A stretch of DNA of 64,000 nucleotides, taken from positions 3,315 to 67,314 of the forward strand of contig CAJOMZ010000013.1 in NCBI GenBank assembly GCA_905236645.1, written 5' to 3'. Origin of the DNA: an uncultured Bacteroidales bacterium (GTDB lineage: Bacteria > Bacteroidota > Bacteroidia > Bacteroidales > P3). The notes beneath the pieces are model-generated. The model saw only the letters and a program-made list of their open reading frames with translations. It did no database searches and had not been told where the DNA came from. Of the stretch, positions 4,279-62,760 are shown one piece after another. Each line of letters starts with the position of its first letter. Within the stretch, counting starts at the first letter, position 1. A program made the translations under genes and the position numbers.

Positions 4279-4491
4279 GGTGTTGGTACGGTGGAATTAG
4301 CTGGATGGTATTTGTGGGTTGGCGTGATGGTGTTTGGGAATTGGCGGGGTTGTGTTTGGGAATTAGCTGGGTGGTGTTTGGGGATCGGTGAGGAGGGGCG
4401 ACGGGCGTGCGGCACCATTTTCTGTGAACAGTGTGGTTGAAAAAAGAGCGGTGTTTGTGGCGATAAGTTGTGTTATTTAATTTTTATTTCG

Positions 4492-4588: not shown

Positions 4589-7291
4589 ATGGAAATTGCA
4601 TCGAAATACAATCCTCGTGCCGTTGAAGAGAAGTGGTACGAATTTTGGTTGGAGAAAAAGTTGTTTCATTCCGAGCCCGACCGCCGTCGCCCTTACACGG
4701 TGGTTATTCCGCCGCCCAATGTGACGGGCGTGCTGCATATGGGCCATATGCTGAACAATACGATACAGGATGTGTTGGTGCGCCGCGCGCGAATGATGGG
4801 CAAGAATGCCTGCTGGGTTCCGGGAACGGACCACGCCAGCATCTCGACCGAGGCAAAGGTGGTGAAGATGCTTGCCGAGCGCGGTATCAACAAGCGCGAC
4901 CTGAGCCGCGACGAGTATATGAAGTATGCCTGGGAGTGGAAGGAGAAGTATGGCGGCATCATCCTGAAGCAGTTGCGCAAGCTTGGCGCCAGCTGCGACT
5001 GGGACCGCACGGCCTTTACGATGGACGACATCCGCTATGAGAGTGTGATTCAGGTGTTTGTCGATCTCTACAACAAGGGCTTGATTTATCGCGGCGCCCG
5101 TATGGTGAACTGGGACCCGCAGGCGCTGACGGCGGTGAGCGACGAGGAGGTGATATACAAGGAGAGCCACGGCAAGCTGTTCTATTTGAAGTACTTCGTT
5201 GAGAACGCAGAACGGGGGACGGAGAACGGAGAGCTGGGCAAGGACTATATCGTCGTGGCCACCACGCGCCCCGAGACCATTATGGGCGACACGGCGGTGT
5301 GCGTGCATCCCGAGGACGAGCGCTACCAGTGGCTGAAGGGCAAAAGGGTCGTTGTGCCCGGCGTAGGCCGCGTGGTGCCCATCATTATGGACGAGTATGT
5401 AGACCGCGAGTTCGGTACGGGTGCCCTCAAGATTACGCCTGCCCACGACATCAACGACTACAATCTGGGTATGAAATACAGCCTTGACAGCATCGATATC
5501 TTCAACGACAACGGCACTCTCAACGACAACGGCGGCAAGTATGCCGGTATGGACCGCTTTGCCTGCCGCAAGGCCATTATGAAGGACCTTGAGGAGGCTG
5601 GCCTTGTCGAGAAGATTGAGGACTATGTGAACAAGGTGGGCCACTCGGAGCGTACCGACGCCGTGATTGAGCCCAAGCTCAGCACGCAGTGGTTTGTGAA
5701 GATGAGCGACATCGCCAAGAAAGCGCTCGAGGTCGTTGAGGACGGCAAGATCAAGTTCCATCCCGACAAGTTCAGAAACACCTACCGCCACTGGCTTGAG
5801 AACATCAAGGACTGGTGCATCAGCCGTCAGCTGTGGTGGGGCCACCGCATTCCGGCGTGGTATTTTGAACGGATAACGGAAAGCGGAGAACGGAGAACGG
5901 AGGTGGTTGTGGCACTCAACGAGGAGGAGGCCCGCAAGCTGGCCGCCGAGAAGTACGGCTACACCGGCGAACTGCGTCAGGACGAGGATGTGCTCGACAC
6001 CTGGTTCAGCAGCTGGCTGTGGCCTATCAGCCTCTTCGACGGCATCCGCAACCCCGACAACGAGGAGATAAAGTATTACTATCCCACCGACGACTTGATT
6101 ACGGCTCCCGACATCATCTTCTTCTGGGTGGCTCGTATGATTATGGCCGGCGAGGAATACAGAGGCGAGGTGCCTTTCAAGAACGTCTACTTCACCGGTA
6201 TAGTGCGCGACAAGCTGGGCCGCAAGATGAGCAAGAGCCTCGGCAATTCGCCCGACCCCATCGAGCTGATAGAGAAATACGGCGCCGACGGCGTGCGTAT
6301 GGGTATGCTGCTGACGGCTCCCGCAGGCAACGACCTGCCGTTTGACGAGAGCATCTGCGAGCAGGGCCGCAATTTCGCCAACAAGATTTGGAACGCCCTG
6401 CGCCTGGTGAAAGGCTGGACGGTGGAAACGGAGAACGGAGAACGGAGACCCGAGAACGAGGTGGCAGTGGAATGGATGGAGCAGAGGATGGCCTGCGTGC
6501 TGGAGCAGATAGAGAAAGACTTTGACCAGTACCGCCTGAGCGAGGCACTGATGAATACCTACAAACTGGTGTGGGACGACTTCTGCTCGTGGTATCTGGA
6601 GATGGTGAAGCCCGCCTACGGCACGCCTATCGACAAGGAGACCTACGACGCGACCATCAGCATCTTCGAGCGTCTGATGTGTATGCTGCATCCGTTTATG
6701 CCTTTTGTCACCGAGGAAATATGGCACCTGCTGCAGGATGCCGACAGCGAGGCCAAGGCAGAGATGATTGCCCAGAGCAGCATTATGATGCAGCGTATGC
6801 CGGCAAGCGTGTTCTACGACCAGCGTATGCTCGACGACTGCACGACGGCCCGCGACGTCATTGCCGGAGTGCGCAACCTGCGCAACAGCCGGGGCCTGTC
6901 GCCCAAAGAGGCGTTGGAGCTCTTCGTGGTGTGCGGCGACGGCAAGCGTATGAACAGCCGCTTTGACGGTATTGTCAAGAAACTGGCCAACGTGAGCGAC
7001 ATCAAGTATGTCGACACCAAGGTTGAGGGTGCCGTGAGCTTTATGATCGGCACGACAGAGTTCTTTGTGCCTATGAGCCAGAATGTCGACGTGGAGGCCG
7101 AGAAGAAGAAACTGGAGGAGGAACTGCGGTATGCCGAGGGTTTCCTGGCCAGCGTGATGAAGAAGCTTGGCAACGAGAAGTTTGTCAACGGTGCGCCCGA
7201 GAAAGTGGTCGCCGTCGAGCGTCAGAAGAAAGCCGACGCCGAGCAGAAGATAGCGGCGCTGAAGGCACAGATTGAGAATCTGAAGGCTTAA
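4589..7291 (+). CDS. valS: Valine--tRNA ligase
   Basis: It has the class I HIGH-type motif [18 protein letters not shown], the [10 protein letters not shown] editing-domain signature and a C-terminal coiled coil. Length is 900 aa. Confidence 0.97.
5203..5234 (+). repeat. Heptamer array 1 inside valS (gaacgca gaacggg ggacgga gaacgga ...)
   Basis: Tandem imperfect GAACGGA units that encode [11 protein letters not shown]. Confidence 0.7.
5867..5901 (+). repeat. Heptamer array 2 inside valS (gaacgga taacgga aagcgga gaacgga gaacgga)
   Basis: Five contiguous 7-nt units (35 nt) that encode [12 protein letters not shown]. Confidence 0.8.
6425..6460 (+). repeat. Heptamer array 3 inside valS (gaaacgga gaacgga gaacgga gacccga gaacgag)
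   Basis: Five units (36 nt) that encode [12 protein letters not shown]. Confidence 0.8.
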
Positions 7292-16878: not shown

Positions 16879-16952
16879 TACCAAAGTTTACTGGAGTGAA
16901 CTTTGGTAGAACTTTGGTAAAACTTTGAGTAAACTTTGGTAGGAATTTGGTA
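16879..16952. repeat. 11-nt phased array: one inverted copy (taccaaagtt), then five direct copies of (g/a)aactttggta
   Basis: The units lie at 16898, 16909, 16920, 16931 and 16942, exactly 11 nt apart. The inverted copy is at 16879-16888. Confidence 0.85.
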
Positions 16953-25104: not shown

Positions 25105-25214
25105 CCAACTCCGTCCGTTGTACAATATATGTACAATAGTTGTACAATACTTGTACAATTGGTAAACGTACAAATATTGTACAAGTATTGTACATATATT
25201 GCGGACGGAGTTGG
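25105..25214. repeat. 110-nt hairpin element: 13-bp GC clamp enclosing 4 + 3 inverted 11-nt TTGTACAATAN units
   Basis: The clamp is ccaactccgtccg (25105-25117) against cggacggagttgg (25202-25214). Units lie at 25118, 25129, 25140 and 25151, with inverted units at 25169, 25180 and 25191. Confidence 0.85.
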
Positions 25215-40323: not shown

Positions 40324-40405
40324 TTCAACGATACTTCAACGATACTTCGACCATATTTCAACGATTATATATCGTTGAAATATAGTCGAAGTATCGTTGC
40401 AATGT
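40324..40405. repeat. Hairpin element built from 11-nt TTCAACGATAC units (4 direct, about 3 inverted)
   Basis: Units lie at 40324, 40335, 40346 and 40357. 40337-40365 pairs with 40371-40399 with one mismatch around the loop tatat. Confidence 0.85.
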
Positions 40406-52473: not shown

Positions 52474-53531
52474 ATTTCTTCGATTCTATTCAAAGCGTCG
52501 GTTATCCTTTCGCATTCAATATCTTGCAATCTTATAGAAGGAATGGTTTGGTATGATTGCAATTCTTTGTTTTCATATAATTTCTGCAGTTCTTTGTTAA
52601 AGACAACAACTTGTTTAGCAGCATCTAATTTAACGGATTCATACTCGTTTGCACTTATCACCACACAGGGCTTTCTGAGTTGAATGGCCAAATGATAAAT
52701 GAAAGTGTTCACAGTGACAACATATTGGCATTGTGACACTAAATAAGGGTAATCTGACAAACTATAATCGTATCCATCAAATATTTGTGCCTTGAAATTT
52801 ATAATTATTGATGGATGTTCTGAAACAAACTTTTTATAGTCGCCATTGAACAGAATATTAAATCCTTTTGAAGCAAGATGATTCATTATGGCTGTAGTTT
52901 GTTTGTCTGAAAGTTTTCCTTGAGTGTTGCCGCCTTCGACAAATACTACATATGGATTTGTCAAGTTTTTTTTATGTGGCGATTCGGCAAGGGGACGCAG
53001 GGGTGGGTGATGTTTGAAATTATCAGGTAGTGTAAACCATTGATTAATTACTGCATTATTGGCAGTTTCATAATATTGTTTTGTCTTTCGAAATCCAAGG
53101 CCATAATAACGACTCTTAGCTTTAACCAAATTATTTAAATATTTGACTCGAAAATTTACGTATACATCTGCTTTGAATAGTTTGAAAAATAGCGATTCTA
53201 TCTTTAATGGATTATCAGGACTCTCAAGAGAACGATATAAGTCGAAATGGTTCGTGTGTTTTTCTGAATCCCACTCCCTTGCCAATGATTCCCATTGGCT
53301 CATACCGATAACTATTATTCGGCAATTCACAGGTGAATAATGCTCGCGAATAGCACTGTAATAGCTTCTAAACCAAAGATAATCGCCTAACCCACCACTT
53401 TCTGTAGAAAGCACTACAATTGGTTTTTTACAGATACGCCACCACCATATCTTGCATAATTCACAGATAAACTTACCGATATAATGTGGATGTTGTCTTA
53501 AATATTTATGCAATGCGGATGTGCTAAACAT
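52467..53531 (-). CDS. Putative glycosyltransferase, GT9 (heptosyltransferase)-like
   Basis: The N-terminal VVLSTESGGLGDYL pattern and its size suggest a GT-B fold. Weak call. Confidence 0.4.
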   Translation of the reverse strand: MFSTSALHKYLRQHPHYIGKFICELCKIWWWRICKKPIVVLSTESGGLGDYLWFRSYYSAIREHYSPVNCRIIVIGMSQWESLAREWDSEKHTNHFDLYRSLESPDNPLKIESLFFKLFKADVYVNFRVKYLNNLVKAKSRYYGLGFRKTKQYYETANNAVINQWFTLPDNFKHHPPLRPLAESPHKKNLTNPYVVFVEGGNTQGKLSDKQTTAIMNHLASKGFNILFNGDYKKFVSEHPSIIINFKAQIFDGYDYSLSDYPYLVSQCQYVVTVNTFIYHLAIQLRKPCVVISANEYESVKLDAAKQVVVFNKELQKLYENKELQSYQTIPSIRLQDIECERITDALNRIEEIC

Positions 53532-54786
53532 TTTTTGTTGCTTCTTGAAATAGACGAATCAGGTCGCTTGTATGTTCATTTATACTACGAATCTTTCTAT
53601 TTGGATTATGTGGACTTGTAAGATATTTTTTTATTGCATTGGCTAATTCATCTATTTTGTTTGGCTCAACCAATATTCCATCAGCCTCGCTGTGTATCTG
53701 CATTTCGGCTCCGCCGCAGCGTGTGGCGATGACGTATTTGTGCTGTGCAATGGCCTCGCCGATGGTGAGGCCGAAAACCTCAAGGTAGATTGCGGGATGG
53801 ACAAGGCAGTGGAACTCTTTTACAAGTCCGCCGACTTGTTCCGCAGGCATTTTGCCGTGCCAGACGATGCGGCTGTCTTTGCGGTATTTGCGTTTCAGCC
53901 TGTCGGCGTAGCGGCGCTCGCCCTTGGTGGCGGCGTCTCCGACCAGGTGCAGTCTGGTGTTCGGATTGTCGATGCCGGAGAAGGCTTCCAGCAGGATGTG
54001 TATGCCTTTCACGTAATTGATGCGGCCGACGTAGTAGAAATGGATAATCGGAGAACGGGGAACGTGGAACGGAGAACTTGATTGTGAATTGTTTTGCGGT
54101 ATGCCGTGAGGGATTATCGATATCTTTTCCGCTGGGCAGCCGTTGCGTTGCAGGGCCTCGGCCATTGCGTCGGACGGGGCAATGAAGTGTGTGGCGAGTT
54201 GGCGGAGTTCTTTCCAGTCGTTGAGTTTTTGGGTGACTATGAGTCCTGTTCGTCCGATAGGGGTGAGGAACGGTATTGTTGGCAGCTTTTCAAGTCGTTT
54301 GCCGGTTTGGCAGTAATGCTTTTGGCTGTAATGTTTCAGCAACGGGTACCAGAACAGGCCTGTGGGCGTGTTGCGCAGGTAGCATTTCAAGCAATGGCTG
54401 TAGTCGGCCGGGATGCGGCAAATTTCATCTTCGGTATTCAATAATGTGCCGGCCGGGCAGACAAGACCGCCGTGATGGGCGGTGACGATGCAGGGAATGC
54501 CCGTCTCTTTGCACAGACGGGCTGCCACGAGCTTTTCGCCGTTGGCGTGGACGATGTCTGGCTGAATCTGCATCAAGGCATCGCGGAACGAATCTTCGTC
54601 GTTCACTTGATATACATTGATGCCGTTATAATCTTTGATTGCGGCTATTGCGCTTTTGCTGAATGATATGACGCTTGCCGTCACATCGTTTCTTTTGGCC
54701 AATTCGTCAACTATGTTGCGTACATACACCTGTCCGCCGCCATAGTCGGAAAAGAAATCGCCTGAAGCAACAACCGCCAATTTCAT
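53524..54786 (-). CDS. Glycosyltransferase family 4 (GT-B, Pfam Glycos_transf_1)
   Basis: N-terminal KLAVVASGDFFSDYGGGQVY and the E-x7-E region EVFGLTIGEAIA. Confidence 0.85.
   Translation of the reverse strand: MKLAVVASGDFFSDYGGGQVYVRNIVDELAKRNDVTASVISFSKSAIAAIKDYNGINVYQVNDEDSFRDALMQIQPDIVHANGEKLVAARLCKETGIPCIVTAHHGGLVCPAGTLLNTEDEICRIPADYSHCLKCYLRNTPTGLFWYPLLKHYSQKHYCQTGKRLEKLPTIPFLTPIGRTGLIVTQKLNDWKELRQLATHFIAPSDAMAEALQRNGCPAEKISIIPHGIPQNNSQSSSPFHVPRSPIIHFYYVGRINYVKGIHILLEAFSGIDNPNTRLHLVGDAATKGERRYADRLKRKYRKDSRIVWHGKMPAEQVGGLVKEFHCLVHPAIYLEVFGLTIGEAIAQHKYVIATRCGGAEMQIHSEADGILVEPNKIDELANAIKKYLTSPHNPNRKIRSINEHTSDLIRLFQEATKNV
54046..54080 (+). repeat. Heptamer array 4 (aatcgga gaacggg gaacgtg gaacgga gaacttg) inside the minus-strand GT4 gene
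   Basis: It has the same DNA orientation as the three valS arrays but is read antisense, encoding SSSPFHVPRSP. Confidence 0.75.
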
Positions 54787-60264: not shown

Positions 60265-60283
60265 ATAAGGTTTGATGGTCAAA

Positions 60284-60330
60284 GGGGTTAAAGGTTTTAG
60301 GGTTAAAAGGGTTTAGGGTTTAAGGGATGG
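60284..60330 (+). repeat. G-tract word repeat (GGGGTTAAAGG TTTTAGGG TTAAAAGGG TTTAGGG TTTAAGGG)
   Basis: Read directly from an 84-nt intergenic spacer. It has four GGG runs with loops of 6, 4 and 5 nt. Confidence 0.7.
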
Positions 60331-62726: not shown

Positions 62727-62760
62727 CGTTCGTTGTCCAGTTGTTGTCCAGTTGTTGTTA
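62727..62760. repeat. Partial copy (about 2.5 units) of the GTTGTCCAGTT array, including its left flank
   Basis: 62727-62758 is identical to 4186-4217 (32 of 32 nt). It lies 70-100 nt upstream of the WaaL/Wzy-like start codon. Confidence 0.9.

Follow-up and report, generated by a model that had tools for sequence, protein, structure and literature searches.

The DNA analysed here, called the window throughout, is a stretch of 64,000 nucleotides from an uncultured Bacteroidales bacterium of the ruminant gut (GenBank assembly GCA_905236645.1, contig CAJOMZ010000013.1, positions 3,315 to 67,314 of the forward strand). It carries valS, the essential gene for valyl-tRNA synthetase (ValRS), which is interrupted in frame by three short arrays of an imperfect 7-nucleotide unit, GAACGGA. 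The open reading frame (ORF) matches the Thermus thermophilus ValRS 1GAX with E = 6e-184, its homologues carry the annotation valine--tRNA ligase, and the gene is present as a single copy in each locus that we retrieved. The gene and its arrays are as follows:

4589..7291, + strand: valS, valine-tRNA ligase, 900 aa, an ORF with homology to ValRS that hosts the three arrays
5201..5235, + strand: array 1, GAGAACG CAGAACG GGGGACG GAGAACG GAGAGCT, five degenerate units in the GAGAACG register
5867..5901, + strand: array 2, GAACGGA TAACGGA AAGCGGA GAACGGA GAACGGA, 12 aa, aa 427-438
6424..6458, + strand: array 3, GGAAACG GAGAACG GAGAACG GAGACCC GAGAACG, aa 612-624

All three arrays lie in frame within the valS ORF. 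Array 1 and its junction codons CTG GGC AAG GAC (to position 5245) together make up 15 residues, aa 205-219, which replace an ancestral GEDK. An earlier note on this DNA, made from the sequence alone, had reported three heptamer arrays in valS, and they are found where it placed them: Tandem Repeats Finder recovers period-7 arrays at 5201-5232, 5867-5902 and 6427-6458 (4.6-5.1 copies, 76-84% matches), the note's coordinates being off by 1-3 nucleotides. The peptides that it quoted and the conserved blocks that it named as flanks are likewise right, the first segment preceding one of these blocks, the second following HRIPAWY and the third RLVKGW. The motif is also over-represented: a search of the window for two consecutive units (GAACGGAGAACGGA, allowing at most two mismatches) gives 10 matches, nine of them within the valS arrays, whereas dinucleotide-preserving shuffles average 0.39 matches and never exceed 2, and the motif recurs in frame in other genes of related genomes. 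The same valS gene is present in two independent assemblies, with 0 and 1 nucleotide differences, and this agreement rules out an assembly artefact. Each array is short (32-36 nucleotides), as would suit chance low-complexity sequence or an error of assembly, but the excess of matches, the concordant assemblies and the dozens of orthologues with homologous arrays leave that explanation a negligible probability. The arrays are real and statistically solid.

The codons in the arrays are set by the heptamer and not by the preferences of the genome. Each of the six arginines in the arrays is encoded by CGG or AGA, with CGC and CGT absent, whereas across the 42 long ORFs of the window CGC alone accounts for 41% of arginine codons (60% together with CGT), against 9% for CGG and 13% for AGA; the four glycine codons of the arrays are likewise restricted to GGA and GGG. 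In all three sense frames, (GAACGGA)n yields a single cyclic peptide, the hydrophilic (ERRTENG)n, since 7 and 3 are coprime, and it reads as (SVLRSPF)n in antisense. It holds no stop codon in any frame on either strand, and therefore either orientation can be coding; combined with the hydrophilic character of the peptide, this makes the unit readily tolerated in coding loops.

In some relatives of this bacterium, the arrays are perfect or near perfect although the nucleotide identity of valS is only 78-85%. Five of five units are perfect at site 1 of the related locus L209 and four of four at site 2 of L121, whereas site 1 of L205 has five units with one mismatch and site 3 of L203 five near-perfect units (L and P numbers are our handles for retrieved loci and ValRS homologues; sites 1 to 3 are the positions of arrays 1 to 3). 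Variant units have also been homogenized in tandem, as (GAGAACA)x3 in L208 and as two copies of GAACTGA in L205 and in L207. The heptamer-driven codons and the runs of four to five perfect units in such divergent relatives bear out the proposal in the earlier note that the signal resides at the DNA level, and the arrays are probably not a selected protein motif.

The contrary view would be that charged, flexible ERRTENG loops are favoured in ValRS, for contact with the tRNA backbone, solubility or partner binding, and that the DNA periodicity is a relic of how the loops originated. Homologues of 81-97% identity retain the GERRTE portion of array 2 and, by analogy with class Ia synthetases, loops rich in arginine and close to the editing-domain hinge and the anticodon-binding domain could make contact with tRNA. 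Relatives that are 91-95% identical nevertheless lack either one array or all three and retain short loops of the ancestral kind; within the 97%-identity clade, the array columns evolve roughly 4 to 30 times faster than the remaining protein; and the codons that follow the heptamer are non-preferred ones. The unit is found, moreover, in antisense (where it encodes the unrelated SVLRSPF), in unrelated proteins and in intergenic DNA, and we consider selection for the peptide highly improbable.

Comparison with 1GAX puts site 1 at an 11-residue gap in the Thermus ValRS and aligns sites 2 and 3 with variable stretches. An AlphaFold2 model built from a shallow alignment (homologues of at least 80% identity; mean predicted local distance difference test (pLDDT) 56, predicted template modelling score (pTM) 0.41) was used solely for the secondary structure around the arrays. 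With low confidence, it shows strands 194-204 and 220-225 joined by a turn that holds site 1, a hairpin of strands 423-429 and 435-441 with site 2 at its tip, and site 3 in the stretch that separates helices 587-608 and 621-646. Of the idea that the arrays occupy surface loops between conserved ValRS blocks, the variable position between such blocks holds for the first two segments, and the exposure of the three sites as surface loops is tentatively suggested by the low-confidence model and the gaps relative to 1GAX.

The three valS sites are general insertion hot spots, because other lineages carry different inserts at them. At site 3, L139:1282-1313 has a (CTCCGAA)x4.6 array, and L209 (P0079) a 9-nucleotide repeat encoding SDK. 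A further small in-frame insert, with a palindromic core CTCCCC(N3-7)GGNGAGGAGAG and encoding ...LPT..GEES..., is found at L123:10625-10644 (site 1) and L191:2578-2598 (site 2), that is, in two valS loops of two lineages; it is a closer formal analogue of elements of the Rickettsia palindromic element (RPE) type than the valS arrays are.

The history of the three sites was reconstructed from an alignment of 120 ValRS homologues of 80-97% identity, with a neighbour-joining tree from which the three array segments were left out and with array presence scored in 121 sequences. The changes relative to the ancestral alleles are:

Site 1: ancestral VE-GEDK-YIVVAT to NGERRTENGE(L/Q/R)GKD (14 aa, this window) or NGERRTENGERD (12 aa), +10 or +8 aa
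Site 2: ancestral DVNGKVE to ER.TE.GERRTE, +5 aa, +15 nt
Site 3: ancestral SDELQQSPEN to an 11-aa stretch, +1 aa, +3 nt, by overwriting

The short alleles are ancestral, since the GEDK state is common among the homologues and the Thermus ValRS is without an insert at site 1; the ancestral site-1 allele, GAGGGCGAGGACAAG, is present in P25, P26, P27, P34, P100, L121 and L122. Array 1 occurs in 28 of the 121 sequences and array 2 in 62, each requiring at least five changes on the tree, and array 3 occurs in 27, with at least two changes. As the most widespread of the three, array 2 is probably the oldest. The ancestral DNA of site 2 (GACGTGAACGGCAAGGTGGAG) includes the near-unit GAACGGC, matching the unit at six of seven positions, and that of site 3 ends with an exact unit, GAGAACG, which is the ancestral seed retained as the last unit of array 3 (6452-6458). 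In the array-less valS of P27, two exact units are present in 2652 nucleotides, one of them at site 3. In line with the earlier note, segments 1 and 2 are lineage-specific insertions; the third segment is not an insertion, as it overwrites ancestral codons for a net gain of 3 nucleotides.

Presence of the arrays changes between close relatives. P27, which is 91% identical (GCA_016283175), has none of the three valS arrays yet carries arrays elsewhere in its genome (L051), and P25, at 95% identity, is missing only array 1. The valS genes of P28 and L121 share 96% nucleotide identity and differ by array 1, whose flanks are those of P28's own lineage. From this comparison, array 1 appears to have been gained recently in the P28 lineage, and its import there by a long recombination tract is ruled out by flanks that match the lineage's own sequence in L121. 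A metagenome scan for valS relatives yielded, among the matches listed, mostly genes of 60-65% identity, useful as outgroups only. Read depth peaks at the arrays in ruminant gut metagenome contigs, where it is confounded by the conserved ValRS blocks.

A fourth array, which accounts for the tenth two-unit match, lies in a different gene of the window, and the motif is therefore not specific to valS:

53524..54786, - strand: GT4 glycosyltransferase gene, whose linker hosts array 4
54050..54077, + strand: array 4, GGAGAAC GGGGAAC GTGGAAC GGAGAAC, antisense in the GT4 glycosyltransferase gene

Array 4 encodes SSPFHVPRSP, which lies in the linker between PHGIP and FYYVGRINYV. Orthologous GT4 linkers are of the SVLRSPF type, of the ERRTENG type (opposite orientation) or consist of other peptides with a 7-aa period, the underlying units being (TCCGTTC)n, (GGAGAAC)n or (ATCAACT)n according to lineage. 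The DNA confirms this in L212, where an ERRTENG-type linker represents the same unit in opposite orientation, and in L213:340-1605, where the linker is (ATCAACT)x8-9. Because arrays that differ in unit and orientation are found at this linker, they replace one another at a single site, and the GT4 linker is a second hot spot.

The GT4 gene sits within a segment of the window (32001-56000) with a G+C content of 0.41-0.44, compared with 0.50-0.53 elsewhere, which may be a horizontally acquired polysaccharide-synthesis island. In all four arrays of the window, the purine-rich strand is the + strand. The + strand has a positive cumulative GC skew across the window, fitting the leading strand, with four arrays being too few for a test.

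Beyond the window, a 19-mer of the repeat searched against a species-representative genome collection returned at least 120 loci, the source genome not being among the loci listed. The loci listed come from Bacteroidales, including many rumen metagenome-assembled genomes (MAGs), and from Gemmatimonadales, Planctomycetota, Kiritimatiellota, Acidobacteriota, Verrucomicrobiota, Treponema and others. Several genomes supply many loci each and, among the matches listed, eight Bacteroidales MAGs have several. Within this set, arrays range from 3 to 30 units and a period of 7 is the commonest tandem-repeat period (339 rows, compared with 71 for period 6 and 92 for period 8), while 30% of the other heptamer arrays are one mismatch away from GAACGGA, against 1.7% in a composition-matched null. 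Long arrays (8-30 units) in other MAGs are intergenic and short ones (4-9 units) are coding; all four window copies are coding, unlike the mainly intergenic heptamer families described so far. In rumen Bacteroidales, short arrays are carried in frame by the following genes:

Sense: rho (between the N-terminal and RNA-binding domains) and rsmH/MraW
Sense: an ABC ATPase, a P-type ATPase, a DUF3857/transglutaminase protein and an alpha-2-macroglobulin
Antisense: a GH2 beta-galactosidase and an MBOAT protein

Among the retrieved loci, 24 inverted array pairs would form long hairpins. Such a hairpin is present in a close relative (L207:22348-22504), in which about 10 units, a loop (ATGCCATAATGCGGCAG) and about 10 inverted units follow directly after a stop codon in intergenic DNA. 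L114, which belongs to a different Bacteroidales MAG, has the same loop, GCCATAATGCGGCAGCCAG, and L051 a similar one; the hairpins with GAACGGA or GAACTGA arms are thus L207:22348-22504, L114:582-689 and L051:6763-6856. Both L051 and L114 have the whole hairpin read through in frame within an ORF. Array copies that share their flanks were also found within several MAGs (L005/L101, L036/L111 and L029/L046).

These observations speak for the main rival explanation, close to the RPE idea, in which the arrays are imported pieces of a mobile or ectopically copied hairpin element with GAACGGA/GAACTGA arms and a conserved loop. Such pieces would enter coding loops through transposition, illegitimate recombination or ectopic gene conversion, and would later pass between related lineages by short-patch homologous recombination. 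The intergenic hairpin of the close relative, the loop common to different genomes, the number of inverted pairs, the shared flanks and the hairpins read through in ORFs all count in its favour, and the junction of array 1, GGAGA(A/G)CTGG, is similar to the arm-loop junction of the hairpin, GGAGAACTGG. This resemblance, however, amounts to only about four non-repeat bases. The valS arrays themselves are without an inverted partner, terminal inverted repeats or a target-site duplication, and the analysis revealed neither a transposase nor another candidate enzyme. At site 3, the array grew beside a pre-existing exact unit with the loop length kept, and the own-lineage flanks of array 1 in P28 confine any recombination tract to less than about 80 nucleotides. 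Viral contigs gave 7 matches in 2.9 million, with no obvious vector, and a phage vector is therefore unlikely. Taken together, we regard import of this kind as possible but doubtful. A simple transposon or miniature inverted-repeat transposable element (MITE) footprint was rejected, as the junctions compared with empty alleles have neither terminal inverted repeats nor target-site duplications.

The explanation that we favour, and consider probable, is that the valS and GT4 arrays belong to a family of heptanucleotide simple sequence repeats (SSRs) spread across the genome, with the units GAACGGA, GAACTGA and GAAAACG. The data show that the arrays are a feature of the DNA level, that their distribution is patchy and lineage-specific, that they evolve fast and that they occur in many genes and genomes. 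We infer that they are neutral and that a DNA-level process makes and remodels them, namely replication slippage together with short template switching or ectopic conversion between array-like sequences, acting where a gene already has a near-unit. A coding array would survive only in a permissive loop or linker, with a net length change that is a multiple of 3 and without a stop codon; after fixation, some lineages would re-homogenize their arrays, whereas in others, including the one in this window, point mutations would degrade them. Arrays 1 and 3 may have been seeded from the older array 2, although this is a guess. In an essential gene, a change of one or two units would be a lethal frameshift, which makes the arrays a tolerated hazard and not a switch. 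A phase-variation switch was rejected given the essential gene and the absence of frameshifted alleles, all 120 ValRS homologues being full length (878-917 aa).

Several observations weigh against this explanation. Relative to the ancestral alleles, the net length changes are +30 or +24, +15 and +3 nucleotides, none of them a multiple of 7; unit slippage from a seed is therefore insufficient by itself and has to be supplemented by extra indels or by template switches that are imprecise, and the same lengths speak for import. A non-repeat junction, (C/T)T(G/T) GGC AA(G/A) GAC, is common to array-1 alleles from three separate branches, which suggests short-patch recombination, import or an older shared origin and not independent growth in place. 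The occurrence of the unit in both orientations at the orthologous GT4 site is easier to reconcile with import than with growth from a local seed. The fair conservation of GERRTE, one half of array 2, could mean constraint at the peptide level. Three of the four window arrays sit in a single 2.7-kb gene, a clustering for which the explanation does not account. As for ongoing slippage, contigs from four of 22 sequencing runs, in which rare variants are invisible, are free of indels at the arrays. The recurrence of this very unit across phyla, for which the explanation does not account either, could indicate a sequence-specific mechanism.

Such a mechanism, common to phyla and writing or spreading GAACGGA-type arrays, is in our view improbable. 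It could be a mobile hairpin element with heptamer-array arms and a conserved loop, or an enzyme that repeatedly copies a short template. If it existed, it could insert arrays into the coding loops of essential genes and replace earlier arrays there, and an undescribed system acting on DNA, instead of generic slippage, would have left its footprint in the form of the unit's recurrence in Bacteroidota, Gemmatimonadota, Planctomycetota, Acidobacteriota, Verrucomicrobiota and Spirochaetota.

The clustering in one gene and the position of the three arrays near domain junctions could also be taken to suggest a function in the RNA. The valS mRNA would then present GGAG/GGA every 7 nucleotides as sites for an S1-, Csp- or CsrA-like protein, or for binding the anti-Shine-Dalgarno sequence, so as to adjust translation or make it pause where domains meet, and a post-transcriptional role has been proposed for the related TAACTGA repeats (PMC4679880). 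On the other side, close relatives carry the arrays only in part, point mutations degrade them, the GT4 array is antisense in its mRNA, the window has no complementary partner array, and a scan of the window and L207 against Rfam at the gathering threshold returned no families. An RNA-level function thus has a very slim chance of being correct.

The window and its relatives contain further repeats. Upstream of valS, the intergenic segment 4191-4278 holds an 11-bp unit, GTTGTCCAGTT, in 3.9 copies, followed at once by its reverse complement, ACTGGACAACA, in 3.6 copies; the pair would make a long perfect hairpin, and the unit is present again at 62732-62758. Additional 11-bp arrays are found at 16898-16952 (GAACTTTGGTA x5), at 25118-25201 (TTGTACAATAC x3.8 followed by GTACAAATATT x3.1) and at 40324-40365 (TTCAACGATAC x3.8), and period 11 is a second repeat class of this genome. 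G/T-rich tandem repeats occur at 4293-4382, in the oadB-valS spacer (22 bp x4.1), and at 60267-60326 (24 bp x2.5). That spacer is about 730 bp long and rich in repeats; the relatives L203 and L206 have extra small genes there instead. Two other close relatives carry a nucleotidyltransferase/HepT-like toxin-antitoxin gene pair (L201:310-961 and L205:3360-4011), upstream of a methylmalonyl-CoA decarboxylase-like operon. Downstream of valS, many human-gut loci of the Bacteroides/Prevotella-like kind (L131, L134 and L140-L162) have inverted pairs of heptamer arrays about 25-140 nucleotides past the stop codon, for example (AATGTTA)x4 ... (TTAACAT)x4.3 and (ATGTTGA)x4.4 ... (TCAACAT)x3.7, and these pairs resemble terminator hairpins made up of heptamers.

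With their fast turnover, the arrays are strain markers for rumen Bacteroidales, and they are likely to cause contig breaks and spurious indels in metagenome assemblies. As orthologous sites can be empty, perfect or decayed, in either orientation and with different units, they also provide a test bed for the origin of bacterial heptamer repeats. The coding rule is general: a stop-free heptamer array of any kind gives the same 7-aa peptide in all three frames. Should the recurrence across phyla reflect a dedicated mechanism, it would be new biology.

The earlier note had likened the arrays to RPEs, which are palindromic elements of about 100-150 bp with a conserved family sequence. The likeness holds for the outcome: like RPEs, which are small non-autonomous repeats, the arrays stand in frame at permissive sites of conserved genes and are lineage-specific and patchy among orthologues, arrays 1 and 2 as insertions and array 3 as a replacement. 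It does not extend to the kind of element. The valS arrays are direct tandem repeats of 32-36 nucleotides; no palindrome was found in the valS arrays and no inverted array anywhere in the window, and only the related hairpins with array arms (L207, L114 and L051) are palindromic in the manner of RPEs. It is the missing palindrome, terminal inverted repeats and target-site duplications of the valS arrays that limit the likeness to the outcome.

Two other systems share some of these traits. As in phase-variable contingency loci, a coding tandem repeat has a unit that is not a multiple of 3, and a slip by one unit shifts the frame. Contingency loci, however, have frame-shifted alleles in the population and lie in dispensable, usually surface-related genes, whereas valS is essential and its arrays are short and interrupted; the cell would not survive an 'off' state, and the valS arrays are therefore not a phase-variable switch. 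The low-complexity inserts of Plasmodium falciparum, which arise under an extreme AT bias and consist of codon-scale (trinucleotide) repeats, are similar in that expansion at the DNA level places rapidly evolving hydrophilic loops among the conserved blocks of housekeeping proteins, including aminoacyl-tRNA synthetases. The arrays described here differ from them in being built of a specific 7-mer that is also found in intergenic arrays.

The arrays are best read as members of the known class of bacterial heptanucleotide SSRs, which is a better fit than RPEs: their 7-nucleotide units stand head to tail beyond chance, and the unit is dispersed, at four sites in 64 kb and in related genomes. To our knowledge, neither the GAACGGA family nor its occurrence in rumen Bacteroidales has been described before, and a literature search for the repeat sequence returned unrelated primer matches only. 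Heptanucleotide repeats are reported to be the most abundant class of long SSRs in many bacterial genomes, and polymerase slippage has been proposed as their cause (Mrazek 2007, as cited in PMC4679880 and PMC4692102). Described families include the cyanobacterial STRR, TAACTGA in Beggiatoaceae, Cyanobacteria and Bacteroidetes, which occurs in inverted pairs and has some copies inside ORFs (MacGregor 2015, PMC4679880), and the GGGAATC and GGGGA(C/T)T repeats of Xanthomonas and Nostoc (Rehm 2015, PMC4692102). In common with STRR, TAACTGA and GGGAATC, whose typical copy number is 2-30, the arrays have 7-nucleotide units in tandem; one or a few related units dominate the genome, with many dispersed copies that sometimes form inverted, hairpin-forming pairs; and their distribution is phylogenetically sporadic, with length and sequence varying between close relatives. 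The likeness to TAACTGA is closest, as GAACTGA and GAACGGA are similar to it as units and as both families have occasional ORF copies in a stop-free orientation that encode 7-aa peptide repeats (LSVISYQ for TAACTGA). Unlike these mostly intergenic repeats, all four window copies are coding, with three of them in one essential housekeeping gene; unlike the described families, GAACGGA is stop-free on both strands, and at least one array has replaced ancestral codons instead of only adding to them. A non-triplet SSR can thus repeatedly colonize essential, conserved genes in frame, and valS offers a natural example of how repeat dynamics in the DNA create, replace and erase loops in a protein.

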